DNA of 64,000 bases from Dimorphilus gyrociliatus (lineage: Eukaryota; Animalia; Annelida). The notes under the pieces were generated by a model. That model saw only the letters and a list, made by a program, of their open reading frames with translations, did not search any database and had not been told where the DNA came from. Position numbers and translations under genes: made by a program. Location: positions 100,315 through 164,314 of the forward strand of contig CAJFCJ010000038.1 in NCBI GenBank assembly GCA_904063045.1, in the 5' to 3' direction. This document shows, piece by piece, positions 6,700-64,000 of this stretch. Position 1 is the stretch's first letter, and the number at the start of each line of letters is the position of its first letter.

Positions 6700-6819
6700 C
6701 CAATTTTTGAAAATTTGTAATGGACTTCAAATGTCATCAAACACTCTAAAGAATCTTTATTTAAATCGATGTGATTTAAATGAAGAACAAAGTAAAGAGA
6801 TTGGAAATTTGCTGAAACA
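6700..6819 (+). pseudogene. NLR-type (RI-like) LRR fragment inside the MULE relic
   Basis: FLKICNGLQMSSNTLKNLYLNRCDLNEEQSKEIGNLLKHC resembles FKNICNGISSSCGFIKEINLKSCNLTEKQGEWLGDALKNC in the 47415 NLR. Confidence 0.7.
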
Positions 6820-7172
6820 TTGTTTCAGAAAAATTGTAAGATGTCAAAAAAAGACTTATTCAAGAATTATTCAAAAGGAAATCTTAGCAATTTGGGAAAA
6901 ATTCAAAGCTGGTGAAATTACAGCAAGTCAACTTCCTGAAATGTCTTTTGAAGTGTATTATTAATCTCTGTACTTCTGTTTTCTGTAGTTTGTTAATGTC
7001 AAAATATATTTCAATAAATTTGGAAAATCATTTAGATATAAATTATTATTTTTTTGACTAATTTTAAATTTCTAGAATTAATATTCAAACATGGCAAAAA
7101 ATAATATAGCATTCTTTTGAATAGTCTGCCCGGGTACATTTTCTACCACTTTGGGGATGTTTTCTGTTGGCC
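6820..7172 (+). mobile_element. MULE transposase C-terminal relic plus right terminal inverted repeat
   Basis: (VSEKL)xRCQKKTYSRIIQKEILAIWEKFKAGEITASQL resembles the C-termini of invertebrate MULE transposases. AATAAA at ~7014. TTGGGGATGTTTTCTGTTGGCC at ~7151-7172 resembles the MITE TIR GGGGACATTTTCTGTCGGCCCC. Confidence 0.6.
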
Positions 7173-7464
7173 TCAATTCTGACAAGTGTATTTGTGCTTT
7201 CTTTGCAGGAGTTATATTGTTTAGTATCTGTACTTCTTGTGCTGAAGCTCAATCACTACCAAATGCTTGAAATCTTCTACCATAACTCAAAAATGTAAAA
7301 AGGACAATAAAAAAGTATGGAAAATAGATAGTTGGAAATTTTTGGTTATTCCATCAAGATTGCCATTAAAAATAATATACTTGAGTGATATTGGCAATGT
7401 CAATGAAAGAGTGAGATAAAAGGTTTTGAAATTAAAATGTTTGTTTTCTCTCTTACTAATTACA

Positions 7465-8560: not shown

Positions 8561-9819
8561 CAATATGATACATTCTATTATGAATCAACAATATGTCCAG
8601 GAGATGAAGGTTTAAATGATAGGCTAGAAAATGTTCATAAAAGTGGAATTGTATTAAAATCATCTCTAAATTCAAACAGTTTTAATTCGACTTTTCCACT
8701 AATAATCTCTTCTCAAAAAAGGTGATTTTATTAGAATCTATTCAAGAATCAAATGGACAATTGACTGTAGCCAAGTGTCAGGCATTCTGTTTACAAAGAA
8801 AATTTTTGATAGAAATGAAAAAATACCAAAATTTAGAAATTATAAATCAATAAAAAATGAAGGTTTAATTGCCATGAGCCATTTGGGAAAGCCATTAGGT
8901 ATTTGGCAATCAGATTATCCTTAAATATTCATTTTTATCCAAAACACCAAATATTTTCAGATGACTTCCAGAGTCTTTCAGCCTATTTGTTAAATGCAAA
9001 AACAATTTCAGACTACTCACCAGTCTATAGAAATACTATCAACTATTATATCCTGAATAAAAACCTATTAAGGATGGCAAAAGATATTCTTCTACTCAAA
9101 AAACCATTCAAGTTCAAGTTTGTAAAAGTTTGTTAAAGTGTGTTTAAACAACATTTAAAAGAAAATAACATACTGTAGGAAAATGTTACAGATCTTCCAT
9201 TGTTTTCATTTTGCAAACTAGACAAACTTTTAGGAAATTATTGCGTAATCAATAGTATTAATACAAGGATGGTTAATTCAGAACTCATTTACTCAATATA
9301 TATTCTATTAGCAAAACACTTTTTGAACAATAAAAGATCTATATTGGACTGATATCAAAATTTCTCACAAAGTGATTAATAAGCTTTAACAATAATGGAA
9401 TTTTTTCTGTAAGAAAAGTTTATATTTCATTCATTTTTATTGATTTTAGTCATTAAACATTAGTAGCTTTCATTAATATGTCAACACCTTTTTTGTTTTG
9501 GCTAGCCAATTGTTTTATGAACAGTAATTTAAAAATTTATTATTTCCAAATTAATAAGATATACAGTTGTCATGGTGAACTATACAATTACAAAAGTGAA
9601 ATTGAGGTCAACAAACAGGTATTATAAGAAAAATTAACCAGCAATCATAATACTGAAAGACGAGCCTATGCTACAAAAATTTGAAACATTAGACAATGAA
9701 AGCATGTCAGAAAATGACAAAGTTCAAGATATTCTCTGTTTTTAAGATAGTGAAGAATCCATTTGTCAGCTTTTACAAAGCAAACAATCTGAGCGAAATG
9801 CTTCAACATTTATTGGACA

Positions 9820-10267
9820 TTTTGAAACTGACACTGGTTTTAAGTTTGATGCCTTGATAGACTCTGGTAGGGACGGATCTTTCATTTCAAAAAAGGTTTT
9901 AAGACAAGTTCAAGGAAAAGCATCCTTCCCAGAACAAATTGTGAAAAATGCTAGAGATGCTTCAGGTAATACCATAGAGATATGTGGAGAAATCATTCTC
10001 AGACTATATTTCAATGGAAAAATTATTAAACAACGCTTTCTGATCAACAAAATCATTGCACAACAATGTATTATTGGGTGTGACTTTCTACAACAAAATG
10101 GAGCTACCCTTGACTTTGGCAAGAGGCAAATTATACTCCAGCCAGATATGGAAAAGAATTACCCTATTGGAACACAACACTTATCTTTCAAAGGACTTTA
10201 CCCAGTTCCTCTTACTATGAAAAAGAATGAGAGTCAAAACCTAACCTTTCTTTTGAAAATCAAGTAA
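9820..10267 (+). mobile_element. Ty3/Gypsy retropepsin (aspartic protease) relic
   Basis: FDALIDSG active site (9851-9868), then RDASGNTIEICG and CIIGCDFLQQNGATLDFG; isolated from the rest of pol. Confidence 0.85.
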
Positions 10268-10576
10268 TGATATTAGCTATTGGGGAGCTGCTCCCTTTCA
10301 CCTAGAATCCACTTTAAAAATATAATTATCAATATATGATGCAGAACATGAATATGATTGAATCTTCTCCTAGTCATCCTTCCCCTTAGGAATCTATTAG
10401 AAAAAGCGATCCTGATACTGAGGAGATAGTTGATGTTAACCAGCCACAAAAAGAGACAATTGATACATATGTACCAGAAACTGTGGTATTACTATCTATT
10501 TTTAAGATTCTCCCTAGTTTCCTTTAAAATTATCAACAAAGAATTACAATCCAAAAATGGATAATTGATAAATTTT

Positions 10577-10720
10577 GGATGTTGTTAAAAACATCCACAG
10601 TTTTGTGGCTTTACCCTAACACTAACCCAGCCCTGGACCCTTTTTTAAGCGCTTCATTGTTCCTAACCCTTCCTTTGGACCTGCCTAATTACAAATCAAT
10701 TGTTGGAATATTTTTCCTCG
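10577..10720. mobile_element. Truncated third copy of the MULE-type MITE family
   Basis: TTACCCTAACACTAACCCAGCCCT...CCTAACCCTT...TAATTACAAATCAAT is collinear with 16125-16250; a 22-nt TIR-like left end starts with GG at 10577. Confidence 0.7.
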
Positions 10721-11027
10721 CCCTAGAATTGAGAAAATCTGTAGACAGCAAAGGAAAGCCTATCAGAATATTCAAAGCAAAATATTCAGCTTATGTCAGC
10801 AATTTGAAATTGCTTTAATCACATCAATGGATTTACTTGAAAAAGCCTCTGACAATTATATACTCCTCTTTAATACATCTTTGTTCTTCTACTCTGTTAT
10901 CAATCATTTTAGACTTCATTCATATATTGACATTCAAATATTTTCAATTCTTCTCATTCAGTTTTTTCTTTCAAATTATCATAATAACTCTTTTCTAATG
11001 TTTTCTTTCATACATTAGATTTCTATA

Positions 11028-46800: not shown

Positions 46801-47414
46801 GCGAAAAGGAGTGGACAGAATAATAAGATTAATGGTCAGACTGGCAATGAAAACGACAAAGCAAGGAAAGCCGTGCAATTATCAAGGGTTGGTCTTCCTC
46901 AATGGATTTGATGTTGTTTGTTTTTATGAATCTGCTCAGTATTGTTTGTGTTTCAAGATTTTATTGATTGTAAAGATTCATTTTTGTTGAATTCAACAAA
47001 CAGGTGTTGCCTGGTGTTTGACCTTGAATTCGTTTGCGAAGAGAGAAACTCTTGTGGAAATAATGAAAACAAACACTCTACTGAAATACGGTGTCTTTAC
47101 ACAACCAGGCTAATCAGCAGTTCATAAAATTCAAAAGAGACCAGCTTATAAAAGAATTACAAAATGACTAATTCACAATATTGATAAGATTTGGTGCCAT
47201 ATCTAATCCATCTGATGAACTTGCAAATAGATTACATGTAAACCTTACTTTTGATGTTGTTATCTCTCTGTCAATTGTACAAACATTATTGTCATCTTGC
47301 CAATTTATTATAACCATATAATTTCAACAAATTCTTAATATTATAACCTCTTAGTTGTGGTTAACCATTTTTTAGATCTAATATTACAAATATTTCTGTT
47401 GCTGCTGTTAAAAA

Positions 47415-50400
47415 ATGAATTCAAGAGAAAAACTCAGTTTTAATTACTACAGGAAAGATATCGAAACCTTATTTATGAAAGAATGTGAACTATTAGAGAT
47501 GTGTGCAAGTCAATATGACTTGAATAGTTGGGCATCAGGAGAAACTTTCATAGTAGAATTAGCAAATCCAAAGAAAAAAACAAAAGCGGTCCAGGAGCTG
47601 TTGAATTACCTCAGTGAAATTTCAATAGATGAAACACTTAAAATATTAGAAACTATTAATGATAATGGTAATAAACAAGCTGAACAACTTAAAGAAAAGT
47701 TAAAAGATCAGACATATGTTTGGCATAAACTGGTAGCTGCCACAAAGGAACAGAGGAGGGATGACTGTGGTTTGATTTTCCTTCTTCCATTCATTGGGAC
47801 AAAACAAGCGAGGATTGAATATATCAATACTCCAATCAAAATGTTACAAATTACATCCGAGAATATTATTGAAAGAAAACTTGTAGATACAGAAGTGACT
47901 TATGAGAATTTTTTCAAGATATTCTATGAGAAATCTTACAATAAAATCTTGATTGAAGGAAAACCTGGAGGAGGAAAAAGTGTTCACATGAAAAATCTTC
48001 TCTTTAAATGGTCCAAGATTGAAGATAAGGACAAACTGTTTATATTTCTCATTTTGAAGAATGTTCAAATGGAAAAAAGTCTTTATGAGGAGATTGTGGA
48101 ACAAAACTTTAAAAACATTCCATTCATTAATGCCAACATTGTTGAATTATTCTTCACTGAGAAGAGAAACGATGTAATATTGCTTTTAGACGGAGCAGAT
48201 GAATTTCATTTAAAAAATCACAAAATCAATTCTATATTAAATGCACGAAAAACAAATATTCCAACTGCAATATGGTCTCGCAATTGGAAGGCACAAATGT
48301 TTGAAAGTACCTGTGATATTGCATTTGAGCTTATGGGATGGGATACTATTCAAATGGAAAACTTCTTTAGTAAGTGTTTTATCTCCAAGGAAAAAAGTGC
48401 AAATTTTATTGAAAAGGTTATAAATAATAATTCCAACATTAAAAGGTTGTGTAAAATTCCAATTTTAGCAATGATTCTCTTCCATCTTTGGAATGAAAAA
48501 AAAGATATTTCTAAAAAATCTTTATATGAAATTTATGAAGATCTTGTTAAGATTATCCTCGAAAAGAATAGAAAGATCTTGAAAGAATCTGACCAAAACC
48601 GTCTTTGTGAATTGTCTTTCATGAATCTTGCTAAAAACAAAATTATCTTACCCAAAGATAGCAATGAACAAGAAGTTTTTAAAGAAGGTTTACAGTGCTT
48701 AATTCAAGTTATTCCAACTGAATCTGATAAAATAGAACTACATTTCTATCATTTATCATTTCAAGAGTTTTTTTCAGCCCAGTTTCTAATAAAACAATTT
48801 AGACAAAGCAATAGAAACACTTTTTTGTCTAGTATGGATAATTTATTCAAAGAAACAAATAATTCCACCATTTATAATGTAATTGACTTTATAAAAGAAT
48901 ACTGTGAAGACATCTTTAATGATATTATACTCTACTCCGAACTTGTAAGAAAAATGTACAATTGTAGTGACAATATCAAAAAGATTTTATGTCAAGATTG
49001 GGATGACAGTGATACCATGAATTTAGAAAATGATGATATTCATGATTATATTCTGGAAACTTTAATAAAAAAGATTGGAAAGTTCATAAAAATTGTAAAG
49101 ATTGTCAATACAAATATCAACACTAAACTTTTATTTGAAATGCTTTTTTCAAATGCTGATGGTTTAAAGAAACTGATAATACATCATACAGTTTTTTCGG
49201 ATTATAGTTCAAATAATATATTCTTATCGAAATATTTGTGGAATTTAGAGCAATTGGAAATTAGGGATTGTTATTTGAATGAACAGACTCTGGAATATGT
49301 TGAAAAAGTCATAGGATATTGTCCTTCACTAAAAATTTTCATTCTATCAGACAACAAAATGTTGGGAGATGGGTTTAATGCAGTTTGTGAAAGACTAGCA
49401 TCACAAAAAATTACTCATATTGATGTTTCCAACTGCCATTTGAATAACCAAGAAATTATAACTCTTGGAAAAACAATTGCACAGTGTTCAGGATTAGAAA
49501 ATATAGATTTATCATATAATAAACAAATAGGAGAAATATTTGAAGTAATATCTGATGGATTGAAAACTCCCTTGAAACATCTAAAACAAATCAAATTGGT
49601 TGAATGTGGTCTAACTGAGAAGCAAGCTGTAAGTCTTCACAAAATTATTCAAGGTTGCTCCTGTCTGGAAATTATAGATTTATCAGGAAATCAAAATGCA
49701 GAGTTGGGAAGAAATTTTGGAAGAGACTCTTTTAAAAGTTTAATAAAAGTATACCTTAAATATTGTTGTGTAAGAGAAAAAGAAGCAATTCTTCTAGAAT
49801 CTTGCTCATTTCTACAATGTTTAGATTTATCTGAAAATAAATTAATGGGAAATGGATTTAAAAATATTTGTAATGGAATATCTTCATCATGTGGGTTTAT
49901 AAAAGAAATAAACCTAAAAAGTTGTAATCTAACTGAAAAACAAGGAGAATGGCTTGGAGATGCCTTGAAAAATTGTAGTTTGTTAGAAAGTGTTAGTTTA
50001 TCATATAATAGATTAGGTGAAAAAGCTTTGGAAACAATATGTGATGGATTAATGTCATCTTCTTCCAAACTAAGTGAAATCAACCTAACAAGCTGTTTCT
50101 TGAGTAAAAAAAGTGCAAATTCCCTTTCAAAAATAATACAAGGATGCACTGCATTAGAAAGCATTGATTTATCTGAAAATGAAGAATTAGGCAGAGAATT
50201 TGTAAAAATTTTTCAAAACTGCTCTGAAAAATTAAAAACTCTTAAACTCTCTAATTGTAAAGTAAATCAAGTTGATGCTCACAGTCTACAAAAGTTGACA
50301 CAAATTTGTTCTTCATTAGAAATTGTTGATTTATCACATAATAAGGAAATGGGAAATGGATTTCAATCAATTTGTTGGCAATGGTCAAAGGGTAACTCAT

Positions 50401-53400
50401 TAAAAGAAATAAATTTGTCTTATTGTAATCTTTCCAAAACAGAAGGAGAAGTTCTTGGAAAAGCACTTGAGAAATGTCACAGTCTAACAACTCTAGATTT
50501 GTCAGGAAATAAAAAAATTGGAAAGGCATTTTATGAAATCTTCAAACAACTGCAATTTTGTAAGAAACTGAAAGACATTAATATATCAGCCTGTCAAATT
50601 GCTATAGACACTGCTTTTTATTTTAGAACAGCAATTGAGGGTCATACTTCAATAGAAACTATAAATGTGTCATCAAACCATAATATTGACATGATTTTCC
50701 AAACACTAATGTCATCTTCTTCAGCATTAAAGAAAATCAATATAGCAAACTGCAACTTAAACAACCTGGAAGCAGTTCTTTTCAATACTTTACTAAAACA
50801 TTGCAGAGCAATCAGAGAGATAAATTTAAATGGTAATAAAACATTTATTAAATATATAGAAGCATTAATTCCATCAGCAAAATCTCTAAAAAATATAAAT
50901 CTGGCAAATTGCAATTTGCAAAATGAACAACTTCAGTTTCTCACAAAAACACTAAGACAATGCTCCTCATTAGAAACTATAAATTTATCCCAAAATTTCA
51001 AGATTTGTACAGAATTTACAAAGATCTATGAAGCACTTACTTCATTATCACCATCTTTAAAAAATATCAATCTGGCTAATTGTAATTTAGGAAATCAACA
51101 AGCCCACTTTCTCACAAAAACACTAAAACAGTATCCTTCATTAGAGAGCATAGATCTCTCTAGGAATTTCACAATTTCTACAGGATTATTAATGATTTTT
51201 GAAACATTTACTTCAGCGTCATCTTTTATAAAAAATATCAATCTCGCCAAATGCAATTTGGGAAATGTTCAAGTTCATTTTCTCATAAAAACACTAAGAC
51301 AATGTACTTCCTTAGAGAGCATAGATTTATCAAGAAATTCTGGCATCAATCAAGAATGTAAAACAATTTTTGAAGCACTTACATTATCATCACTTTCATT
51401 AAAAAATATCAATCTAGCAGAGTGTAATTTGGGAAGCAGACAAGTTCAATTACTCACAAAAACACTAAGAGAATGTCCTTCATTAGAGAGCTTAGATTTA
51501 TCTGGGAATTTTGGGATTTGTAAAGAATGTGAAAATATATTTGAAGCACTTTCATCATCATCATCTTCTTTGAAAAATATCAATCTGGCCAATTGTAATT
51601 TGGGAAATGAACAACTTCAGTTTCTTATAAAAACATTAACACAATATCCTTCATTAGAGAGCATAGACTTATCTGAGAATTATGGCATTTACAAAGAATG
51701 TAGCAATATTTTTCAAGCACTTACCTTATCATCACCTTCTTTAATAAATATCAATCTCGCTAATTGTAATTTGGGAAATGAACAAGTTCTGTTTCCCATA
51801 AAAAGATTAAGACAGTGTCCTTCCTTAGAGAGCATAGATCAATCTGGGAATTCTGATATTTATACTGAATGTGAAGATATTATTGAAACAGTTACATTGT
51901 CATCACATTCACTAAAAAATATTAATCTGGCCAATTGTAATTTGAAAAATGAACAAGTTCAGTTTCTGGCAATAGCATTAAGTAAATGTTCTTTATTAGA
52001 GAGGATAAATTTGTCAGGAAATTATGGCATTTACAAGGTATGTGATAAAATATTTCAAGCACTTACCTTATCATCACCTTCTTTAATAAATATCAATCTC
52101 GCTAATTGTAATTTGAGAAATGAACAAGTTCACTTTCTCATAAAAACACTAAGACAGTGTCCTTCTTTAGAGAGCATAGATTTATCTGGCAATTGTGGCA
52201 TTAATGAAGAATGTGAAAATATATTTGAAGCACTTACCTTATCATCACATTCTTTAAAAAATATCCATCTGGCTAATTGTAACTTAGGAAATGAACAAGT
52301 TCAGTTTCTCACAAAAATGCTAGGACAGTGTCCTTCAATTGAGACATTAGATTTGTCTGGGAACAGAGATATTTGTATAGAATATGACAATATTTTTGAA
52401 GCAATTACATCCTCAGCACTTTCTTTAAAAAATATCAGTCTGGCTAATTGTAATTTGGAAACTAGGCAAGCTCAGTTTCTTGCAAGAACACTAAGACAGT
52501 GTCACTTGTTAGAAAGAATAGATTTATCTGGGAATTCTGGGATTTGTAATGAATGGGAAAATGTTTTTGAAGCACTTACCACATCATACCTTTCTTTAAA
52601 AGGTATAAGTTTGGCACAGTGTAATTTAGGAGACAGCCAAGCTCTGCTTCTTATAAGAAAACTAAGACTATGTTTATCATTAGAGATCATAGATTTATCT
52701 GGGAATTTTTGGATTTGCACAAAATTTGGAAACATTTTTGAAGCACTTACATCATCATCACTTTCTTTAAAAAAAATTAATCTGGCTAATTGTAATTTGG
52801 AAAATAAACATGCTCTGGTTCTCATCAACACAATAAATCGGTATGCTTCATTAGAGAGCATAGATTTATCTAGGAATATTTGTATTTCTAAAGAGTATAT
52901 ACAGATTTTCAAAACACTTAGATCAGCATCAACTCCTTTAGAAAATATCAATCTCTCTAATTGTAATTTGAGAAATGAACAAGTTCACTTTCTCATAAAA
53001 ACACTAAGACAGTGTCCTTCTTTAGAGAGCATAGATTTATCTGGCAATTGTGCCATTAATGAAGAATATGAAAATATATTTCAAGCACTTACCTTATCAT
53101 CACATTCTTTAAAAAATATCCATCTGGCTAATTGTAACTTAGGAAATGAACAAGTTCAGTTTCTCACAAAAACATTAAGACAGTGTCATTCATTAGAGAG
53201 CATAGACCTATCTGGCAATTGTGGCATTGATGAAGAGTATGAAAATATATTTGAAGCACTTACCTTATCATCTCATTCTTTAAAAAATATCCATCTGGCT
53301 AATTGTAACTTACGAAATGTACAAGTTCAGTTGCTCACAAAAACATTAAGACAGTGTCATTCATTAGAGAGCATAAATTTATCTGGCAATTTTGGCATTG

Positions 53401-56400
53401 ATAAAGAGTATAAAAATATATTTGAAGCACTTACCTTATCATCTCATTCTTTAAAAAATATCCATCTGGCTAATTGTAACTTAGGAAATGAACAAGCTCA
53501 GCTTCTCACAAAAACATTAAGACGGTGTCGTTCTTTAAAGAGCATAGACTTATCTGGCAATTGTGACATTAATGAAGAATGTGAAAATATATTTGAAGCA
53601 CTTACCTTATCATCTCATTCTTTAAAAAATATCCATCTGGCTAATTGTAACTTACGAAATGTACAAGTTCAGTTGCTCACAAAAACATTAAGACAGTGTC
53701 ATTCATTAGAGAGCATAAATTTATCTGGCAATTGTGGCATTGATAAAGAGTATAAAAATATATTTAAAGCACTTACCTTATCATCTCATTCTTTAAAAAA
53801 TATCCATCTGGCTAATTGTAACTTACGAAATGTACAAGTTCAGTTTCTCACAAAAACATTAAGACAGTGTCATTCATTAGAGAGCATAGACCTATCTGGC
53901 AATTGTGGCATTGATGAAGAGTATGAAAATATATTTGAAGCACTTACCTTATCATCTCCTTCTTTAAAAAATATCCATCTGGCTAATTGTAACTTACGAA
54001 ATGTACAAGTTCAGTTGCTCACAAAAACATTAAGACAGTGTCATTCATTAGAGAGCATAAATTTATCTGGCAATTTTGGCATTGATAAAGAGTATAAAAA
54101 TATATTTGAAGCACTTACCTTATCATCTCATTCTTTAAAAAATATCCATCTGGCTAATTGTAACTTAGGAAATGAACAAGCTCAGCTTCTCACAAAAACA
54201 TTAAGACGGTGTCGTTCTTTAAAGAGCATAGACTTATCTGGCAATTGTGACATTAATGAAGAATGTGAAAATATATTTGAAGCACTTACCTTATCATCTC
54301 ATTCTTTAAAAAATATCCATCTGGCTAATTGTAACTTACGAAATGTACAAGTTCAGTTTCTCACAAAAACATTAAGACAGTGTCATTCATTAGAGAGCAT
54401 AGACCTATCTGGCAATTGTGGCATTGATGAAGAGTATGAAAATATATTTAAAGCACTTACCTTATCATCTCATTCTTTAAAAAATATCCATCTGGCTAAT
54501 TGTAACTTACGAAATGTACAAGTTCAGTTTCTCACAAAAACATTAAGACAGTGTCATTCATTAGAGAGCATAGACTTATCTGAGAATTATGGCATTTACA
54601 AAGAATGTAGCAATATTTTTCAAGCACTTACCTTATCATCACCTTCTTTAAAAAATATCCATCTGGCTAATTGTAACTTACGAAATGTACAAGTTCAGTT
54701 TCTCACAAAAACATTAAGACAGTGTCATTCATTAGAGAGCATAGACCTATCTGGCAATTGTGGCATTGATGAAGAGTATGAAAATATATTTCAAGCACTT
54801 ACCTTATCATCTCATTCTTTAAAAAATATCCATCTGGCTAATTGTAACTTACGAAATGTACAAGTTCAGTTTCTCACAAAAACATTAAGACAGTGTCGTT
54901 CTTTAAAGAGCATAGACTTATCTGGCAATTGTGACATTAATGAAGAATGTGAAAATATATTTGAAGCACTTACCTTATCATCTCATTCTTTAAAAAATAT
55001 CCATCTGGCTAATTGTAACTTACGAAATGTACAAGTTCAGTTGCTCACAAAAACATTAAGACAGTGTCATTCATTAGAGAGCATAAATTTATCTGGCAAT
55101 TGTGGCATTGATAAAGAGTATAAAAATATATTTAAAGCACTTACCTTATCATCTCATTCTTTAAAAAATATCCATCTGGCTAATTGTAACTTACGAAATG
55201 TACAAGTTCAGTTTCTCACAAAAACATTAAGACAGTGTCATTCATTAGAGAGCATAGACCTATCTGGCAATTGTGGCATTGATGAAGAGTATGAAAATAT
55301 ATTTGAAGCACTTACCTTATCATCTCCTTCTTTAAAAAATATCCATCTGGCTAATTGTAACTTACGAAATGTACAAGTTCAGTTGCTCACAAAAACATTA
55401 AGACAGTGTCATTCATTAGAGAGCATAAATTTATCTGGCAATTTTGGCATTGATAAAGAGTATAAAAATATATTTGAAGCACTTACCTTATCATCTCATT
55501 CTTTAAAAAATATCCATCTGGCTAATTGTAACTTAGGAAATGAACAAGCTCAGCTTCTCACAAAAACATTAAGACGGTGTCGTTCTTTAAAGAGCATAGA
55601 CTTATCTGGCAATTGTGACATTAATGAAGAATGTGAAAATATATTTGAAGCACTTACCTTATCATCTCATTCTTTAAAAAATATCCATCTGGCTAATTGT
55701 AACTTACGAAATGTACAAGTTCAGTTTCTCACAAAAACATTAAGACAGTGTCATTCATTAGAGAGCATAGACCTATCTGGCAATTGTGGCATTGATGAAG
55801 AGTATGAAAATATATTTAAAGCACTTACCTTATCATCTCATTCTTTAAAAAATATCCATCTGGCTAATTGTAACTTACGAAATGTACAAGTTCAGTTTCT
55901 CACAAAAACATTAAGACAGTGTCATTCATTAGAGAGCATAGACTTATCTGAGAATTATGGCATTTACAAAGAATGTAGCAATATTTTTCAAGCACTTACC
56001 TTATCATCACCTTCTTTAAAAAATATCCATCTGGCTAATTGTAACTTACGAAATGTACAAGTTCAGTTTCTCACAAAAACATTAAGACAGTGTCATTCAT
56101 TAGAGAGCATAGACCTATCTGGCAATTGTGGCATTGATGAAGAGTATGAAAATATATTTCAAGCACTTACCTTATCATCTCATTCTTTAAAAAATATCCA
56201 TCTGGCTAATTGTAACTTACGAAATGTACAAGTTCAGTTTCTCACAAAAACATTAAGACAGTGTCATTCATTAGAGAGCATAGACTTATCTGAGAATTAT
56301 GGCATTTACAAAGAATGTAGCAATATTTTTCAAGCACTTACCTTATCATCACCTTCTTTAATAAATATCAATCTCGCTAATTGTAATTTGAGAAATGAAC

Positions 56401-57128
56401 AAGTTCACTTTCTCATAAAAACACTAGGACAGTGTCCTTCTTTAGAGAGCATAGATTTATCTGGCAATTGTGCCATTAATGAAGAATATGAAAATATATT
56501 TCAAGCACTTACCTTATCATCACATTCTTTAAAAAATATCCATTTGGCTAATTGTAACTTAGGAAATGGACAAGCTCAGCTTCTCACAAAAACATTAAGA
56601 CGGTGTCGTTCTTTAAAGAGCATAGACTTATCTGGCAATTGTGCCATTAATGAAGAATATGAAAATATATTTCAAGCACTTACCTTATCATCACATTCTT
56701 TAAAAAATATCCATCTGGCTAATTGTAACTTAGGAAATGAACAAGCTCAGCTTCTCACAAAAACATTAAGACAGTGTCATTCATTAGAGAGCATAAATTT
56801 ATCTGGCAATTGTGGCATTGATAAAGAGTATAAAAATATATTTGAAGCACTTACCTTATCATCTCATTCTTTAAAAAATATCCATCTGGCTAATTGTAAC
56901 TTAGGAAATGAACAAGCTCAGCTTCTCACAAAAACATTAAGACAGTGTCGTTCTTTAAAGAGCATAGACTTATCTGGCAATTGTGACATTAATGAAGAAT
57001 GTGAAAATATATTTGAAGAACTTACCTTATCATCTCATTCTTTAAAAAATATCCATTTGGCTAATTGTAACTCAAAAAAGAGTATGAAAATATATTTGAA
57101 GCACTTACCTTATCATCTCATTCTTTAA
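47415..57128 (+). CDS. Giant single-exon NLR: putative death-fold/CARD-like N-terminus, NACHT, and about 90 RI-type LRRs; C-terminus frameshifted at ~57071
   Basis: Walker A GKPGGGKS (47958-47981), Walker B LLLDGADE, CKIPILAMIL, winged-helix FYHLSFQEFFSA. Alternating 28/29-aa LRRs follow. 9.7 kb of open frame. Confidence 0.9.
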   Translation: MNSREKLSFNYYRKDIETLFMKECELLEMCASQYDLNSWASGETFIVELANPKKKTKAVQELLNYLSEISIDETLKILETINDNGNKQAEQLKEKLKDQTYVWHKLVAATKEQRRDDCGLIFLLPFIGTKQARIEYINTPIKMLQITSENIIERKLVDTEVTYENFFKIFYEKSYNKILIEGKPGGGKSVHMKNLLFKWSKIEDKDKLFIFLILKNVQMEKSLYEEIVEQNFKNIPFINANIVELFFTEKRNDVILLLDGADEFHLKNHKINSILNARKTNIPTAIWSRNWKAQMFESTCDIAFELMGWDTIQMENFFSKCFISKEKSANFIEKVINNNSNIKRLCKIPILAMILFHLWNEKKDISKKSLYEIYEDLVKIILEKNRKILKESDQNRLCELSFMNLAKNKIILPKDSNEQEVFKEGLQCLIQVIPTESDKIELHFYHLSFQEFFSAQFLIKQFRQSNRNTFLSSMDNLFKETNNSTIYNVIDFIKEYCEDIFNDIILYSELVRKMYNCSDNIKKILCQDWDDSDTMNLENDDIHDYILETLIKKIGKFIKIVKIVNTNINTKLLFEMLFSNADGLKKLIIHHTVFSDYSSNNIFLSKYLWNLEQLEIRDCYLNEQTLEYVEKVIGYCPSLKIFILSDNKMLGDGFNAVCERLASQKITHIDVSNCHLNNQEIITLGKTIAQCSGLENIDLSYNKQIGEIFEVISDGLKTPLKHLKQIKLVECGLTEKQAVSLHKIIQGCSCLEIIDLSGNQNAELGRNFGRDSFKSLIKVYLKYCCVREKEAILLESCSFLQCLDLSENKLMGNGFKNICNGISSSCGFIKEINLKSCNLTEKQGEWLGDALKNCSLLESVSLSYNRLGEKALETICDGLMSSSSKLSEINLTSCFLSKKSANSLSKIIQGCTALESIDLSENEELGREFVKIFQNCSEKLKTLKLSNCKVNQVDAHSLQKLTQICSSLEIVDLSHNKEMGNGFQSICWQWSKGNSLKEINLSYCNLSKTEGEVLGKALEKCHSLTTLDLSGNKKIGKAFYEIFKQLQFCKKLKDINISACQIAIDTAFYFRTAIEGHTSIETINVSSNHNIDMIFQTLMSSSSALKKINIANCNLNNLEAVLFNTLLKHCRAIREINLNGNKTFIKYIEALIPSAKSLKNINLANCNLQNEQLQFLTKTLRQCSSLETINLSQNFKICTEFTKIYEALTSLSPSLKNINLANCNLGNQQAHFLTKTLKQYPSLESIDLSRNFTISTGLLMIFETFTSASSFIKNINLAKCNLGNVQVHFLIKTLRQCTSLESIDLSRNSGINQECKTIFEALTLSSLSLKNINLAECNLGSRQVQLLTKTLRECPSLESLDLSGNFGICKECENIFEALSSSSSSLKNINLANCNLGNEQLQFLIKTLTQYPSLESIDLSENYGIYKECSNIFQALTLSSPSLININLANCNLGNEQVLFPIKRLRQCPSLESIDQSGNSDIYTECEDIIETVTLSSHSLKNINLANCNLKNEQVQFLAIALSKCSLLERINLSGNYGIYKVCDKIFQALTLSSPSLININLANCNLRNEQVHFLIKTLRQCPSLESIDLSGNCGINEECENIFEALTLSSHSLKNIHLANCNLGNEQVQFLTKMLGQCPSIETLDLSGNRDICIEYDNIFEAITSSALSLKNISLANCNLETRQAQFLARTLRQCHLLERIDLSGNSGICNEWENVFEALTTSYLSLKGISLAQCNLGDSQALLLIRKLRLCLSLEIIDLSGNFWICTKFGNIFEALTSSSLSLKKINLANCNLENKHALVLINTINRYASLESIDLSRNICISKEYIQIFKTLRSASTPLENINLSNCNLRNEQVHFLIKTLRQCPSLESIDLSGNCAINEEYENIFQALTLSSHSLKNIHLANCNLGNEQVQFLTKTLRQCHSLESIDLSGNCGIDEEYENIFEALTLSSHSLKNIHLANCNLRNVQVQLLTKTLRQCHSLESINLSGNFGIDKEYKNIFEALTLSSHSLKNIHLANCNLGNEQAQLLTKTLRRCRSLKSIDLSGNCDINEECENIFEALTLSSHSLKNIHLANCNLRNVQVQLLTKTLRQCHSLESINLSGNCGIDKEYKNIFKALTLSSHSLKNIHLANCNLRNVQVQFLTKTLRQCHSLESIDLSGNCGIDEEYENIFEALTLSSPSLKNIHLANCNLRNVQVQLLTKTLRQCHSLESINLSGNFGIDKEYKNIFEALTLSSHSLKNIHLANCNLGNEQAQLLTKTLRRCRSLKSIDLSGNCDINEECENIFEALTLSSHSLKNIHLANCNLRNVQVQFLTKTLRQCHSLESIDLSGNCGIDEEYENIFKALTLSSHSLKNIHLANCNLRNVQVQFLTKTLRQCHSLESIDLSENYGIYKECSNIFQALTLSSPSLKNIHLANCNLRNVQVQFLTKTLRQCHSLESIDLSGNCGIDEEYENIFQALTLSSHSLKNIHLANCNLRNVQVQFLTKTLRQCRSLKSIDLSGNCDINEECENIFEALTLSSHSLKNIHLANCNLRNVQVQLLTKTLRQCHSLESINLSGNCGIDKEYKNIFKALTLSSHSLKNIHLANCNLRNVQVQFLTKTLRQCHSLESIDLSGNCGIDEEYENIFEALTLSSPSLKNIHLANCNLRNVQVQLLTKTLRQCHSLESINLSGNFGIDKEYKNIFEALTLSSHSLKNIHLANCNLGNEQAQLLTKTLRRCRSLKSIDLSGNCDINEECENIFEALTLSSHSLKNIHLANCNLRNVQVQFLTKTLRQCHSLESIDLSGNCGIDEEYENIFKALTLSSHSLKNIHLANCNLRNVQVQFLTKTLRQCHSLESIDLSENYGIYKECSNIFQALTLSSPSLKNIHLANCNLRNVQVQFLTKTLRQCHSLESIDLSGNCGIDEEYENIFQALTLSSHSLKNIHLANCNLRNVQVQFLTKTLRQCHSLESIDLSENYGIYKECSNIFQALTLSSPSLININLANCNLRNEQVHFLIKTLGQCPSLESIDLSGNCAINEEYENIFQALTLSSHSLKNIHLANCNLGNGQAQLLTKTLRRCRSLKSIDLSGNCAINEEYENIFQALTLSSHSLKNIHLANCNLGNEQAQLLTKTLRQCHSLESINLSGNCGIDKEYKNIFEALTLSSHSLKNIHLANCNLGNEQAQLLTKTLRQCRSLKSIDLSGNCDINEECENIFEELTLSSHSLKNIHLANCNSKKSMKIYLKHLPYHLIL

Positions 57129-58524
57129 AAAATATCCATTTGGCTAATTGTAACTCAGGAAATGCACAATCTCAGCTTCTCATAAAAACATTAAGACTCT
57201 GTCGTTCTTTAAAGAGCATAGACTTATCTGCAATTCTGGCATACATAAAGATGTGAAAATATATCTGAAGCACTTACATCATCATCACTTTATTTCAAGA
57301 AGTTCCATCCCGCATATCAAAACTTTCAAAATGAACAAGTTAAATATCTCATAAAAACACTTAAACAGTGTGCTTGTTTAGATAGCATACATTTGTCTAG
57401 AAATTATGGCATCAATGAAGAATGTGAAAACATATTTGAAGCACTTACATCATCTTCACTTTCTTTAAAAAATATCCATCTGGTGAATTGTAACTTACGA
57501 AATGAACAAGTTCACTATCTCACAAAAACATTAAGACAGTGTCATTCATTGGAGAGCATAAATTTATCTGGCAATTATGGCATTTATGAAGAATATGAAA
57601 ATATTTTTGAAGCCCTTTGCTTATCATCACATTCTTTAAAAAATATCCATCTGGCTAATTATAACTTAGGAAATGGACAAGCTCAGCTTCTCACAAAAAC
57701 ATTAAGACAGTGTCCTTCTTTAAAGACCATAGACTTATCTGGCCATTGTGGCATTAATGAAGAATGTGTAAACATATTTGGAGCACTTACATCATCTTCA
57801 CTTTCTTTAAATAATATCCATCTTGCATATTGTAACTTAGGAAATGAACAAGTTCAGTATCTCACAAAAACACTAAGACAGTGTCCTTCTTTAAAGAGCA
57901 TAAATTTATCTGGCAATTATGGCATTAATGAAGAATGTGAAAATATATTTGAAGCACTTACATCATCTTCACTTTCTTTAAATAATATCCATCTGGCTAA
58001 TTGTACCTTAGGAAATGAACAAGTTCAGTTCCTCACAAAAACACTAAGGCAGTTCCCTTCTTTAAAGAGCATAGATTTATCTGGCAATTTTGGTATTAAT
58101 GAAGAATGTGTAAACATATTTGATGCACTTACATCATTGTCACTTTCTTTAAAGAGTATCCATCTGGCGTATTGTAAATTAGGAAATGATCAAGTTCAGT
58201 TTCCCACAATAACACTAAGGCATTTTCCTTCTTTAAAGAGGATAGATTTATCTGGCAATTGCGGCATTGATGAAGAATATAAAAATATATTTGAAGCACT
58301 TATGGTATCATCACATTCTTTAAAAAATATCCATCTGGCTAATTGTACCTTAGGAAATGAACAAGTTCAGTTCCTCACAAAAACACTAAGGCAGTTCCCT
58401 TCTTTAAAGAGCATAGATTTATATGGCAATTGTATCATTAATGAAGAATGTGAAAATATATTTGATGCACTTACCTTATCATCACATTCTTTAAAATATA
58501 TCGTTATGCCTTATTGTAACTTAC
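50720..58524 (+). repeat. Coding tandem array of 171-bp units (57 aa = one 28-aa plus one 29-aa LRR), near-identical from ~52930 to 57070
   Basis: CTCACAAAAACATTAAGA recurs at 53163 and 53334 (171 bp apart). Diagnostic variants recur at exact multiples of 171 (TGAGAATTAT at 51674, 54581, 55949, 56291). Confidence 0.95.
57072..58524 (+). pseudogene. Out-of-frame downstream LRR cassettes (about 2 damaged units, then about 6.6 open units in ORF 57393..58529)
   Basis: A deletion joins AATTGTAACT to CAAAAAAGAGTATGAAAAT at ~57071; further indels lie at ~57230-57260. The LRR pattern resumes and ends abruptly at TGTAACTTAC (58524). Confidence 0.85.
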
Positions 58525-61500
58525 AATAAGGATGAGAATATATGTTCAGTTTTAGACAAAGCAGCATCAATGCCCAAATCATTAGCAAAGTTTATGTGCT
58601 CTTTATGTCTTGTTAAAGTGTCTTGAATGTATTCTAAAACTTGTTGAACTTGTTGTTGCTTCTTACCAACATCCTCTTTTATACCAAGCTGTATTAATTC
58701 AGTAAGTCTAGCAACCTCTAATTTTGGTTCTTCAATTTCATTGCTTATTTTCATTCTGATTGATTGTGCTGCTGCAGTCTGAAATCTGCATCCTTTCTTT
58801 GTGTAATAGATGAATGTTTTCTTTCCAGAATACATTGCTTGTTGATTGTGTTCAATGTCCAGTGGGTTTTTCTTAATTTTGAACAGGTGTTGTGTTTGGT
58901 CACAATCTCCATATCTTATATCTTCTTTTGTTATGTGGTAAGCATGATGGAGTATTGGATCAACTGAGAATAAGAGATCTTTATACTTGATGAGAAATTC
59001 TTTGGAGCATAATCCATTTTTGGTGATAATTGTTGTATCACACACTACTTGAACTGATTTTAATTCTGTACAAGTATTTAAGGTTGTTAGATCACCAAGC
59101 CATGTACTGTGCATTCCATGCTTAGATCCAAGTATTGTTGGTAGTTGAGGTGCCAATGGTGTGAGTAATGCTACCATCTTGTTTCTCATAATGAATTCTT
59201 TGCATAGAAGTTGTGATACTTGTTTGAAAACTGTTTGTAAATTTTGGAAATTTTTATCAATGTTATTTAATAAAGCAGATGTTCGAATAGCATCTGCTAT
59301 GTCTATTTTGTGAAATTTTGGCATCTGTATGCTTTCTGATACTCTTCTCCTCCATTCATGCTTCTTTGGTGTTCTTTGCAAAAGTGTAAATTTTCCATTT
59401 GCTTGATGTGTTTGAAATTGTTTATCTTTTGGACTTTGGTACCAAGTGTCCAGTCTTGGTAATGGATTGAAACTAATTTTCTTCTTGTTGAGTTCAAAAT
59501 CTTCTGCTTTTGCCATTCTAGCAGGTTCCATTTTGGTTGTTTTCAACATTTTGAGTATGTATTTGTTGTTAATATCCCATATATCAGGTGAGATTATTTC
59601 TCTGACCATCCAGGTCCTAACCAATGGTGTTACATGATTTTTGATCAGCATATGATAAGTCTTGTCACCATCTCTATACCAATCATTATAGGTTAGTATA
59701 TTTTGTATTTCTGTATTATTTGCTTTTCTCAAAGTTGATATCTTTCCATCATAATTCTGCAATCTTGCAACTTCTTTGTTTGAAATGATTTTATATTTGA
59801 TATCTGCCATCATTCTGTTATCAGCATAATTTGAATTTGTAAGATCAGTTCTTAATAAGTCGTATTCCTTCTGGGGTACTAAAATTCTTGTTCCAGGACC
59901 ACCATATCCTTTGATATATCTATCTTGATAAGGTAAATCCATTATTGCATAGTTGGGACATGAAAAATATCCTCCAAGCTTAATGCACTCTACATTGTAG
60001 GATACTGCTTTCCATGGGGATTCATGACCAAGGAGATTTTGTCCTTTCTGAGGATTGAAAATAATAATGGAATCCAGAGTTCTACAAAATTTATGTTTGA
60101 TAGAACAGTCCTCTAAATATTCCAAGTTGGTTGTTATCTTATCCTGACTTGGGTGCCAATAAGCTTTGCCAATTTGGAGAATTGTTGTAAATTCTTCAAC
60201 CACTGTTGTTCTTGGCCATTTGTAGTTTGATCCTTTGTTTTCATTGTACATTAGAAGGTTTCCTTTTTCAATGAGTTTTTGTCCATTTAAGGTCTTTTTT
60301 GACAATAACATTTTTCTGCATTGTTTGTCACTTAAGGTAAGTGTTTGTTTTTCAACTCTGTGTTTCTTTGCTCCAAAGAAGTAATGAGTGTAAAAGTTGA
60401 TTCTTCTCTTTACCAAACACTTAACAGCTTGTATTGCCAAATTATCAGCTTTAATTTCATAAATATTTGCCATTATTTTGGTCATTTGTTTAGTTTTGAA
60501 TGTGCAAATTGGTTCATCAGCCAGATCAAATGACTGATGTACTTGTTGCCCTTGACAGAATTGTACTGAAGGAAGCATTCTCACAGTTATGTTTGCTTTT
60601 GTTATTGATACATTTCCCTGAACCAAGTTTAATAAGCATAGCGCTAGCAGAGTGTAAACAATGGATCCTCTTATAGGAAGTGTTCCAACTTTCCTTTCTT
60701 GTTTCTCTACCTTGAGTGTGTTAACTCTAGTTGGTTGTTTGTTAGCCAATCTTAGTCTACTAGCATGGTAGAATTTTCTTTTGCCATTTAATATTTCCAA
60801 TTCATAAAGACATTTTGTAGTATCAGTAGCAGTTACAATGTATGGTCCACTCCATTTGCTTGTATTTATCCTATTCATTCCTTGACCAATGTGTTCATTT
60901 TTTATGTGTACCCATTCACCAATTTGGTAAGTTGGGGGTTTTCTTGTGATAGTTTTGTTTACTCTATCTCTATATGCCTTCTTTTTCATGACAGATTTGC
61001 ACAATGCAGTAGCTCTTATTTCTTCCATTTCATGTTTTCTATCAAATAGAAATTTTGTTGTTGGTTCTAATCTTGGAACTTCCATTAACAAATCTAAGAC
61101 ATTCCTATTCTTCAATCCAAATAATATTTCATGTGGAGTTTTGCCTGTGCTTCCCACTGGAATTTGGTTTAAGCATGTTTGAATTATTGGTAATTGTCTT
61201 GTCCAATCTGTTAATTGTTCCATAACTACATGTTTATGTAGTGCTCTGCGAATTTCCAAATTCTTTCTTTCTACCATTCCATTACTTTGGCTATGGAATG
61301 CTGTTGTTTTTATTTTCCTTATTCCCATTGATGTAACCATCTCTGTAAATATTTCCCCCAGAAAATTCCGTCCTTGGTCTGTGAGAATTTCTTCTGGAAT
61401 ACCAAATATTGGAAAGTAGTTAAAAAACAAGTGTTTTGATATTTCTTCAGCTGTCTGAGTTTTTAATGGAAATAGGTTTGTAAATCTTGACATGTGATCT

Positions 61501-61796
61501 ATAATGACAAGTATGTATTTGTAAGATTCATGTCCTGTTAGTGGTCCCATTATGTCCATTGCAATTCTTTGCATTGGTAGAGTTGGATGGGGTGTTTCAA
61601 CCAATAGATGTTTGTTTCCAGGTGCTCTTAATTGTTCACAGAATTTGCAATTCTTTATATGGTCTTTAATTGTTTTCTTAAGTTGTGGATGCCAGAAAGC
61701 TTGTTCCAAAGTATGAATTGTTATGTCTACACCATAGTGTTCAAATATTTGATGTTGATGTATTTGGTTCAGTAGGTTGTTAAAGTTAGTAGTGAA
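58521..61796 (-). CDS. Uninterrupted integrase - signal peptide - envelope-like glycoprotein fusion ORF (TM anchor missing by truncation)
   Basis: Open frame from ~61796 (EHYGVDITIHTLEQAFW) through the integrase and GPY motif, then hydrophobic GSIVYTLLALCLLNLVQG (60615-60668) and a Cys-rich ectodomain (AVKC..FYTHYFFG..CRKM..YKWP..CSIKHKFCRT; LLC..LG..GDL...C..CSKEF..VDP). The stop codon comes from the antisense LRR sequence. Confidence 0.8.
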   Translation of the reverse strand, partial: FTTNFNNLLNQIHQHQIFEHYGVDITIHTLEQAFWHPQLKKTIKDHIKNCKFCEQLRAPGNKHLLVETPHPTLPMQRIAMDIMGPLTGHESYKYILVIIDHMSRFTNLFPLKTQTAEEISKHLFFNYFPIFGIPEEILTDQGRNFLGEIFTEMVTSMGIRKIKTTAFHSQSNGMVERKNLEIRRALHKHVVMEQLTDWTRQLPIIQTCLNQIPVGSTGKTPHEILFGLKNRNVLDLLMEVPRLEPTTKFLFDRKHEMEEIRATALCKSVMKKKAYRDRVNKTITRKPPTYQIGEWVHIKNEHIGQGMNRINTSKWSGPYIVTATDTTKCLYELEILNGKRKFYHASRLRLANKQPTRVNTLKVEKQERKVGTLPIRGSIVYTLLALCLLNLVQGNVSITKANITVRMLPSVQFCQGQQVHQSFDLADEPICTFKTKQMTKIMANIYEIKADNLAIQAVKCLVKRRINFYTHYFFGAKKHRVEKQTLTLSDKQCRKMLLSKKTLNGQKLIEKGNLLMYNENKGSNYKWPRTTVVEEFTTILQIGKAYWHPSQDKITTNLEYLEDCSIKHKFCRTLDSIIIFNPQKGQNLLGHESPWKAVSYNVECIKLGGYFSCPNYAIMDLPYQDRYIKGYGGPGTRILVPQKEYDLLRTDLTNSNYADNRMMADIKYKIISNKEVARLQNYDGKISTLRKANNTEIQNILTYNDWYRDGDKTYHMLIKNHVTPLVRTWMVREIISPDIWDINNKYILKMLKTTKMEPARMAKAEDFELNKKKISFNPLPRLDTWYQSPKDKQFQTHQANGKFTLLQRTPKKHEWRRRVSESIQMPKFHKIDIADAIRTSALLNNIDKNFQNLQTVFKQVSQLLCKEFIMRNKMVALLTPLAPQLPTILGSKHGMHSTWLGDLTTLNTCTELKSVQVVCDTTIITKNGLCSKEFLIKYKDLLFSVDPILHHAYHITKEDIRYGDCDQTQHLFKIKKNPLDIEHNQQAMYSGKKTFIYYTKKGCRFQTAAAQSIRMKISNEIEEPKLEVARLTELIQLGIKEDVGKKQQQVQQVLEYIQDTLTRHKEHINFANDLGIDAALSKTEHIFSSLL

Positions 61797-64000
61797 TTAC
61801 CAGTAATGGTTGACAACCATTCAGATACCATACTAAATCATCTTTGACAAACATATGTTCAATAAAATTTTGTATTCCTTGAACATTTCAACATCAATAT
61901 TTGCTCCTTCCAATTTTCTACAATTTCATTAGCGTGTCATCCAAAACTTTTCAGTGTAGAAGTTTATCTCAACAGGTTTATTTTTTAATTTCATGACCTG
62001 TAATTTTTGTCATCTGCTTCTTCATCATAACCATCATTATTGTCTAAAATTCATCCAAACAATCAGCTAAGTCTTCTAAATCTTCTGTATCAATATAAAA
62101 GCATTAAGCATATCCTTTCTTTCTGCTAATTGTGGAATTGTATTGCCATTTTTTTTCTTCATTTAGTCTTTCCTTTAGTAAATTTCGGAAATCAATAATT
62201 CATCAGTTTCTCCAATTCTGGATATCCAGTCTGCTCTGTTGGTTCTTCCAGTATGTAAATTATTTCAAAGTCCATATCCATAAGTGCCATAACCCATTTA
62301 ACAGTACTTGAATTTAATTTGTTTGTACAAATGTTTGTACCAAATTTTGGTGATCAGTGTAAAGAAAAAATTTCTTATACTGCAAGTAATGGGAGAATTT
62401 TGTACTGCCCAATAGACTGCAAAAGCTTCTTTTTGATAAGCTGCATACCTTAGTTGTGTATTGATTAGGAGTTTGAAGCAAAAGAAATTGGCTTTCTTAT
62501 TTTCTTTCCATCTTCTTCCCATTCTTGTTCTAAAACTGCACCAACTGCATAATTGGAGCATCTGTTGTTAGATAGAATGGTTTACTAAAATCAGGTAGTT
62601 GAAGTATTGGTGGTTCTGTCATTGATTTCTTTAGTGTCTGATACGCTTTCTCTGCTTCTGTAGTCCATTTTAGTCTTTCAGTCTTCTGATGTAGTTTTAA
62701 TAATTCTCTCAAGGTTTTGTAATTTTTGCAAAGTCCTTGATAAATCTTCTATAATAACACACAAAATGCACAAAACTTAGTAAAGTATTTGCAAACATTG
62801 GTAATTCAGCATCTTTTATCTTTTGAATCTTTTCTGGATCAGTTTCAATACCATTCTGTGTAATTCTATGACCAAGAAATTGTACTGATCTTGTAGAAAT
62901 GCACATTTGCTTAACTTGATTCTGAAGTCCTTTTCTTTGATTCTTTCCATCAGTTTCTGTAGACTTGTGTAGTGTTCCTCCAATTTTGTAAAAACAATAA
63001 TATCATCCATATAGTTAATACAGAAATTTTCCAATCCATTTATGACAAAATTTGCCATAATATAGCTGAAGTGTGAGGGTGCATTTGCTAAACCAAAAGG
63101 CATTCGATTAAATTCAAATAGACCAAATGGTGTTATGAAAGCAGTTTTTCTTTGTCTTCTTCCTTGATAGGATGTGGTGAAATGCACTTGTCAAATCCAA
63201 GATGGAAAAGTATTTATGTCCTCCTCCAAGTTGTCAAATAAATCTTCTTGGTGGGATTGGATAACAATTCTTTTTGAATGCTTGTTAAGTTTTCTGTAAT
63301 CTACACACATTCTTAATGTTCCTTCTTTCTTTTTCACAAAAACAATTGGTGAAGCCCATTGGCTTTTGCTTGCTCTAATCAAACCATTTGCTAATAATCC
63401 ATTAAGTGTTCCCTACATTCCTGTGTTTGTTGGTGTAATCTGTATGTCTTTGTTTAAAAGGTTTCACATCTTCCAATAATTCAATTGCCATTGGTGAACA
63501 TCTGTGAGCCAATGTCATTTTGATTTGTAGCAATAATGTCTTCATAATTCTTGATGATTTCTTTCAATTCTTCCCTGATTTTGTCAGGATTATTTTGGAC
63601 ACATGTAAATAGTTGTCAATTTCTACTGTAGTTGAATTAATGTGGTGTATATTTTGATTAGACATATGTTCAAACTCAACACTTTCAGCAATTTCTATCT
63701 CAGGAGTTGCTGGAGTTTTCATTTGTTCTTTTCAACTTTGATAGTTATTCATCCTTTAATTCTATGTATTGTGTTTTCATTTCCATTTCTGTAATTAATT
63801 CTTCAGATTCAGTTTCAGTTTCTTCAGCAGATGAGTTAATGATAATAACTGAGTCATTGTCTGAATCTGTTGTTGCCATTTTCTTCTTCAGATGACTTTA
63901 TACCATTAACAATATCCAAATCTGAGTCTGAGTTATGCTCTGGTTCATTACTCATCTCTGTATCATAATTTTCAAAGAAACTCAAAGTTTCATTTGAGCC
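58525..64000 (-). mobile_element. Ty3/Gypsy LTR retrotransposon with env-like gene (3' end and LTR absent; 5' end beyond the window)
   Basis: Order RT - RNase H - integrase - env on the minus strand: [38 protein letters not shown] (63002-63013), YLTTDA, YAAYQKEAFAVYWAV, HHCC zinc finger, D-D-E core (MDIMG, TDQG, VERKN), GPY module. Confidence 0.95.
61800..63420 (-). pseudogene. Frameshifted RT/RNase H region of the Gypsy element
   Basis: Split across at least five short ORFs in changing frames (63191-63382, 62816-63187, 62709-62906, 62530-62712, 62298-62561). TDAS is broken to TDAP by an indel. Confidence 0.9.

Follow-up and report, generated by a model that had tools for sequence, protein, structure and literature searches.

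In a Ty3/gypsy retrotransposon of the annelid Dimorphilus gyrociliatus, the integrase reading frame continues without interruption into a predicted class III membrane-fusion glycoprotein. The element lies on the minus strand at the end of a 64,000-nucleotide stretch of contig CAJFCJ010000038.1, referred to below as the window, in whose coordinates all positions are given. It is a multicopy element of which the window holds the 3' half, and its pol order of reverse transcriptase (RT), then RNase H, then integrase fits Ty3/gypsy (Metaviridae). We consider it probable that gypsy pol continues into a class III envelope (env) to give a Pol-Env precursor, that an internal signal directs the insertion of this precursor into the membrane, and that signal peptidase releases an anchored, trimeric fusogen.

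The junction between integrase and env

The stop-to-stop frame comprises 1,091 codons and encodes a complete gypsy integrase (the first 350 residues), a signal-like segment and a 697-residue env ectodomain (Table 1). The catalytic residues of the integrase core are D81, D140 and E176 (D-D35-E); a GPY motif is found at 60840-60848, and the GPY/F module ends at residue 348. In the Protein Data Bank (PDB), the match to Ty3 Gag-Pol covered residues 6-341 (E = 1.6e-19), and the integrase of prototype foamy virus (PFV) scored higher over a shorter span. No chromo family followed the integrase among Pfam matches at E ≤ 1. With H2C2, rve, D-D35-E and GPY/F all present and with matches to Ty3, the integrase is of the gypsy type named in a preliminary description of this DNA, which had also correctly placed no stop or frameshift between the GPY module and the internal signal segment.

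Over 58524-60614, the coding frame contains no stops, compared with 34-60 in each of the other five frames. Thus, the open frame is not due to chance. The last methionine ahead of the signal segment is residue 307. The only hydrophobic segment of the entire open reading frame (ORF) comprises residues 377-392 (Kyte-Doolittle value of 2.33 in a 13-residue window) and coincides with the internal signal peptide previously proposed at 60615-60668, which is likewise predicted here from hydropathy.

Six public sequencing runs from three studies contain the stretch, and five of them were compared by aligning short-read contigs to the window. Contigs identical to the window (0 substitutions, 0 gaps) bridge the integrase-env junction in four of the five runs, representing three studies; one of the runs with identical contigs may be the source of the window itself. 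An identical bridging contig was absent among those listed for the fifth run, X6. A second subfamily, about 85% identical, crosses the junction without gaps in X1 and X6, and the length of the linker is unchanged in two contigs that are still more diverged. The identical bridging contigs, the gap-free subfamily and the conserved linker length together indicate that the fusion is a trait of the family and not an error of the window copy.

The substitutions in the second subfamily follow a coding pattern. At 60582-60768, third positions hold 21 of the 37 differences listed for it (binomial p = 0.003); among the 29 codons affected by the 37, 14 changes are silent and none creates a stop. Within the signal segment, 12 changed codons were listed: 8 are silent, 3 remain hydrophobic, and the last residue changes from Gly to Ala and so stays small. 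Further into env, at 58964-59043, third positions account for 8 of 10 listed differences, and 9 of 10 are silent. These sequence comparisons thus show coding constraint on the linker and the signal segment.

Other read contigs resemble env or integrase only in part. Contigs of 1.4 to 5.6 kb match the YFFG loop region of env alone (60348-60405) and then diverge, which suggests that further, more distant env-bearing families are present in the same organism. Contigs that skip 58956-60849 were found in three of four runs and contigs that skip 60424-62401 in two of four; these are probably internally deleted, non-autonomous derivatives without most of env or integrase.

In our estimate, it is highly improbable that env is carried as a passenger that is decaying or has no function, or that the in-frame join arose by accident, either in one copy or in the assembly. 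Such a view could draw on the many frame breaks in the pol of the window copy, on its missing membrane anchor and on the existence of the internally deleted derivatives with both joints. However, the exact match of read contigs to the junction in four runs largely refutes an accident at that site, and the mostly silent differences at 58964-59043 also speak against decay of env. In pol, read contigs differed from the window by 0 substitutions and 8 gaps over 61281-62105 and by 2 substitutions and 15 gaps over 62152-63203. Since these differences are mostly small gaps with few substitutions, they suggest that the frame breaks in the window pol reflect assembly error rather than decay.

Table 1. 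Features of the retrotransposon in the window and read contigs across its integrase-env junction
Feature	Positions	Strand	Basis or remarks
Upstream pol: bridge region, RNase H, RT, acidic spacer	61797..64000	-	several frames; element runs off the window
Single open frame, 1,091 aa	58521..61796	-	integrase, linker, signal-like segment, env ectodomain; both ends broken off
Integrase zinc-binding H2C2 domain	61629..61778	-	Pfam PF17921 Integrase_H2C2, aa 7-56, E 8.8e-10
Integrase catalytic core	61269..61580	-	Pfam rve, aa 73-160, E 7.6e-10; PDB matches to PFV and Ty3 integrase
Integrase C-terminal GPY/F module	60753..60929	-	motif positions; Ty3 Gag-Pol match covers query aa 6-341
Linker of 28 codons, no stop, no Met	60669..60752	-	gap-free in second subfamily
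Predicted internal signal peptide ending V-Q-G	60615..60668	-	hydropathy
Predicted class III fusion domain (60021-60449) inserted in PH-like domain	59868..60488	-	model, VIA, Foldseek
Insert of ~180 aa between PH domain and central helix	59325..59867	-	ends in basic WRRR cluster; alignments
Putative central helix and LGD-x5-C motif, gB domain III-like	59070..59300	-	profile match to EBV gB
Likely crown domain and membrane-proximal helices	58531..59069	-	pLDDT mostly <50; no transmembrane anchor in window copy
Break point	58521..58531	.	element adjoins end of LRR frame (57249-58529, +), no LTR between
Identical bridging contigs	X1 59892-60869; X2 60459-60978; X3 60458-60869; X5 60458-60779		read contigs
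Second-subfamily contigs	X1 record 2, 60305-60869; X6 record 23, 60305-61100		87 and 111 differences, respectively

Predicted fold of the env ectodomain

The ectodomain contains 14 cysteines in 697 residues (2.0%), 3 N-glycosylation sequons and no RxxR. The size given in the preliminary description (about 690 residues) was therefore accurate, but its characterization as cysteine-rich was not. The motifs that it named were all in place: YFFG at 60372-60383, YKW at 60216-60224, WRRR at 59343-59354 and LGD..C at 59070-59099. As had been stated, WRRR is a basic cluster and not a canonical RxxR. A furin site in the ectodomain was considered and rejected, as RxxR is absent and relative P0002 does not conserve the WRRR cluster. 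Self-BLAST revealed no internal repeat in the ectodomain.

In an AlphaFold model of the ectodomain, the predicted local distance difference test (pLDDT) score was 60-90 over a block of residues 41-240. Within this block, YFFG (78-81) is placed at the turn between strands 60-78 and 81-92, and YKW (131-133) lies between strands 120-128 and 136-154. Structural alignment with VIA-align gave Z scores of 9.7 for herpes simplex virus (HSV) gB (root mean square deviation of 4.1 over 137 residues), 9.3 for Mokola virus G, and 8.3 for both vesicular stomatitis virus (VSV) and rabies virus G. A Foldseek search of the PDB returned 105 matches at E ≤ 0.001, and those listed were all herpesvirus gB (E = 2.7e-9). 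The comparison by AlphaFold and Foldseek proposed earlier thus found structural similarity to class III fusogens. With similarity to both gB and rhabdovirus G and with both loops between strands of the fusion domain, a class III fold is predicted, and we regard the ectodomain as a predicted class III membrane-fusion glycoprotein.

Direct sequence searches contributed less: phmmer of the ectodomain against the PDB gave one chance match. Among its relatives, P0005 matched the Pfam family Rhabdo_glycop_FD (E = 2.1e-5) and P0009 matched Glycoprotein_B (E = 1.5e-4). A profile built from 11 sequences (A1) aligned with residues 443-536 of Epstein-Barr virus (EBV) gB at E = 0.011, bringing the cysteine of the central helix and LGD..C into register; positions 54-188 of the same profile matched a lyssavirus-sized glycoprotein at E of about 1. 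The central helix corresponds to model helices 439-499, which are of low confidence, and the region of the gB-type crown (model residues 524-655) has a pLDDT below 50.

The preliminary description had likened the glycoprotein specifically to those of borna-, nyami- and chuviruses. Its class III part stands as a prediction, but for the specific affinity herpes-, rhabdo-, chu-, xinmo- and nyamivirus proteins are in a tie. Foldseek found 191 matches at E ≤ 0.001 in BFVD, where herpesvirus gB ranked first (1.1e-10), followed by a chu-like protein at rank 6 (1.3e-9), a xinmovirus protein at rank 8 (2.2e-9) and a nyavirus protein at rank 25 (1.1e-8). The glycoproteins of all five groups thus lie within about two orders of magnitude in E-value (1e-10 to 1e-8), and no bornavirus G was named among the 50 BFVD matches listed. 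In the ESM Atlas, Monjiviricetes_fusion scored 0.84, which is under the lead level of 0.9 and below haemagglutinin.

Model residues 43-249 (207 residues) span 208 residues of VSV G and 315 of HSV gB. In the model, the N-terminal fusion and PH module therefore appears rhabdovirus-sized and the core gB-like. This mixture fits a G of the chu-, nyami- or xinmovirus type, which makes the leaning of the preliminary description understandable, but the data do not single out such a G. An env of this build would help to bridge the gap between the architectures of rhabdovirus G and herpesvirus gB. As modeled, the window env resembles viral class III fusogens in that a PH domain encloses its elongated fusion domain, which bears two aromatic loops, and in its central helix with LGD..C as in gB; it differs from them in its identity, 5-13% to all, and in an extra domain before the central helix.

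This extra domain of about 180 residues is common to the window protein and P0002 and much shorter in P0005, P0006 and P0008. Env relatives classed as lacking it comprise P0005, P0006 and P0008-P0014, some of which have their own methionine and leader. When folded alone in a two-sequence model, the insert reached a pLDDT of 67-92 over about 70 residues. No fold match was obtained, the best Z among 48,161 chains being 3.9 and BFVD giving 0 matches at E ≤ 0.001; a missing match from a two-sequence model does not prove a new fold. The top ESM Atlas score of the insert, 0.86, was to an unnamed cluster.

The insert, sited before the central helix, is a candidate attachment module. Statements here and below about published elements refer to the sections of the cited sources that were searched. 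According to PMC13524379 (Chary and Hayashi, eLife 2026), it is unknown how gB-type retroelement envelopes enter cells without the helper glycoproteins of herpesviruses. An env with an extra folded module beside its fusion machinery would be a concrete candidate for built-in attachment, here in a small annelid. The text sections of PMC13524379 searched, which exclude the figures, hold no description of such an insert.

A proposed Pol-Env precursor and other env-bearing retroelements

The frame has no stop after the integrase, so translation of pol from genomic RNA would carry on into env. Thus, a Pol-Env precursor, as proposed in the preliminary description, is the expected translation product of the unbroken frame. 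The internal signal segment would be inserted cotranslationally, with Pol staying in the cytosol, and signal peptidase in the endoplasmic reticulum would cut after V-Q-G. The protease of the element may then trim the membrane-tethered leader off the integrase. Env would trimerize, become anchored in the particle membrane and fuse the particle with a target cell; such particles could pass between cells, for example, into the germline from the soma, as gypsy does in Drosophila. Relatives carry an anchor: of the five env relatives that extend beyond the break in the window copy, four (P0002, P0004, P0006 and P0007, but not P0009) have a hydrophobic window exceeding 1.5 at the C terminus, and an anchor is also found in the tail of P0015. 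If in-frame Pol-Env expression does occur in Metaviridae, the output of env would be tied to that of Pol, and integrase would be part of a membrane-bound precursor.

Several points weigh against this account. The window protein itself matched no fusogen family in Pfam. The AlphaFold model of the whole ectodomain is weak (mean pLDDT of 50.7 and predicted template modeling score of 0.33, with most of the C-terminal half below 50), and the Foldseek TM-scores were 0.13-0.22. The signal peptide was assigned by hydropathy. The stop check in the second subfamily covers the listed differences only, so an unlisted stop may be present there. The fusion may also be confined to this family, as the more distant P0005 and P0009 start with their own methionine and hydrophobic leader. 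Finally, Metaviridae typically express env from a subgenomic RNA produced by splicing, in which the start for the main exon is supplied by an upstream exon (PMC12992720); given such a start, the missing methionine before the signal segment does not favor a polyprotein.

Env could accordingly come mainly from a spliced subgenomic mRNA with its own start, with the in-frame Pol-Env product being a minor or tolerated by-product. Splicing is the usual route in Drosophila Metaviridae (PMC12992720), and it would yield more env than expression at the level of Pol. However, this route needs no open, length-conserved linker, yet the linker is open, free of gaps in the second subfamily and of the same length in the two more diverged contigs. 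We see predominance of the spliced route as possible but unlikely. The two routes are not exclusive and can coexist.

Env made within a polyprotein has a precedent in another retroelement family, the Belpaoviridae, where Atlas expresses Gag-Pol-Env as a single polyprotein (PMC9094657). Class III glycoproteins are also found in that family: Tas has a gB-like env (PMC9094657), and in Anakin/Pao elements a chuvirus G is described as "fused with" Pao (PMC7642597). The element in the window resembles these in having env downstream of integrase. It differs in that its RT and integrase match Ty3 and a GPY/F module is present, and the env of Atlas is class II. Drosophila gypsy and ZAM errantiviruses share with it a Ty3/gypsy pol with env downstream, but have an F-type env that is encoded in a frame of its own and expressed by splicing (PMC12992720). 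The Pol-Env route is thus known for belpaoviruses; for gypsy elements, no discussion of it was found in the literature searched.

The preliminary description had proposed the element as a candidate independent lineage of invertebrate endogenous retroviruses. That it is a newly recognized kind of env capture was not supported, since gB-type env in Ty3/gypsy elements has already been catalogued, D. gyrociliatus included (PMC13524379). In that study, Ty3/gypsy elements with a class III "HSV/gB-type" env are recorded across animals, 221 of 1,512 listed elements being labeled ENV_HSV, and the authors argue that the origin is ancient and not a matter of recent independent captures. In the catalogued elements, as in the family described here, a class III env follows a gypsy pol and has a signal peptide, fusion loops and an anchor. 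Type III glycoproteins have also been noted in mosquito gypsy elements (PMC13172572). Three ENV_HSV elements, Llat_2, Bcal_1 and Pmet_4, are labeled POL-ENV or GAG-POL-ENV (PMC13524379), labels that we take to denote fused frames; the words "fused," "in-frame" and "polyprotein" were not found in the main text of that paper as searched. None of the literature searched, which excluded subscription papers and the eLife figures and sequences, describes a gypsy element whose integrase is joined in frame to a class III env. Nothing further on this point came from PMC12583693 or from the preprint of the eLife paper. The kind of element is already known; the one in the window differs by its isolated integrase, by its fusion in frame and by an insert of about 180 residues without a structural match.

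The catalogue of PMC13524379 includes an element from D. gyrociliatus, Annelida_Polychaeta_Dgyr_errantivirus_1, the only ENV_HSV entry among about 74 annelid rows, with 7 copies and long terminal repeat (LTR) coordinates of 1669 to 10983. The family described here could be this element or a near sister of it, in which case only the annotation detail would be new; this is rather unlikely in our assessment and is compatible with the Pol-Env account. The likely host is the same, the env is gB-type, the length is compatible, and the nearest named relatives of the window element are D. gyrociliatus gene models. However, Dgyr_errantivirus_1 is labeled GAG-POL with a chromodomain, whereas the window element has no chromodomain, its env is in frame and only 28 codons separate its GPY/F module from the signal segment; the two can be compared by labels only.

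Relatives of either half of the fused protein are few. Sequence searches with the ectodomain yielded only 8 relatives among 1.84 billion representatives. The nearest named relatives, the gene models mentioned above, are P0007 for env and P0015 for the integrase, the latter 94% identical over 162 integrase columns. Among 37 integrase relatives (600-1,910 residues), part of this env was found in P0015 only; in the other 36, no 13-residue window beyond the integrase exceeded 1.9 in hydropathy. A search with profile A1 for longer fused proteins found none among 4,402 candidates, which is weak evidence, and locus searches of viral contigs and metagenome contigs found no relative.

A close relative of the integrase outside Dimorphilus was not found. 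A quick integrase tree comprised 38 rows and no named references. In it, the window sequence and P0015 share a long branch (1.77) of unsure placement and have no close neighbor among the 36 other rows; this tree cannot test independent capture. It is doubtful that the element represents an independently captured class III env outside the catalogued gB-type groups, with the insert serving as a receptor-binding module of about 180 residues, an obligate Pol-Env protein tethering the enzymes to the membrane, and infectious particles in a lophotrochozoan.

The window copy and its surroundings

Neither the anchor nor the 3' LTR is present in the window copy. Contigs from X1 and X2 leave the window sequence at 58531 and continue for at least 255 letters in other sequence, and no contig among the pieces listed joins the leucine-rich repeat (LRR) frame to env. 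Thus, the end at 58531 is a deletion or a misjoin. The stop at 58521 was accordingly rejected as the true end of env, because at about 58531 the window copy is cut short and its 3' end, with the LTR, is lost.

At the other end, position 61796 was rejected as the start of the ORF: the 5' end of the frame is a break in pol, and several frames upstream of it hold pieces of RT and RNase H. RT occupies 62819-63412 (minus strand), RNase H about 62300-62580 and the integrase 60753-61796. RT matched Pfam RVT_1 (E = 1.2e-17), and its best PDB match was Ty3 RT (E = 5e-18); the match to RT_RNaseH was weak. These upstream pieces are supported by tblastn with P0015. An acidic, Ser/Glu-rich spacer upstream of RT at 63600-64000 (minus strand) also occurs in P0015. 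The 5' part of the element lies beyond the edge of the window, and gag, the protease and the 5' LTR were not seen.

Several other genes were found on the remainder of the window. A NACHT-LRR (NLR-like) gene at 47412-58529 (plus strand) includes one frame of 3,238 codons with a long array of near-identical LRR units. An LRR frame of 426 codons continues it, and the end of this frame coincides exactly with the break point of the element. A very large polycystin-1-like gene region at about 15161-42845 (plus strand) encodes several F5/8, PAN, fibrinogen C, PKD, REJ, PLAT and channel domains. KY-like Ig domains lie upstream of it and may belong to another gene. An isolated frame for a retroviral-type aspartyl protease at 9746-10267 (plus strand) matched Pfam RVP_2 weakly (E = 6e-4) and gave no match with P0015. 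A Reprolysin (M12B) metalloprotease exon is located at 7688-8344 (minus strand).

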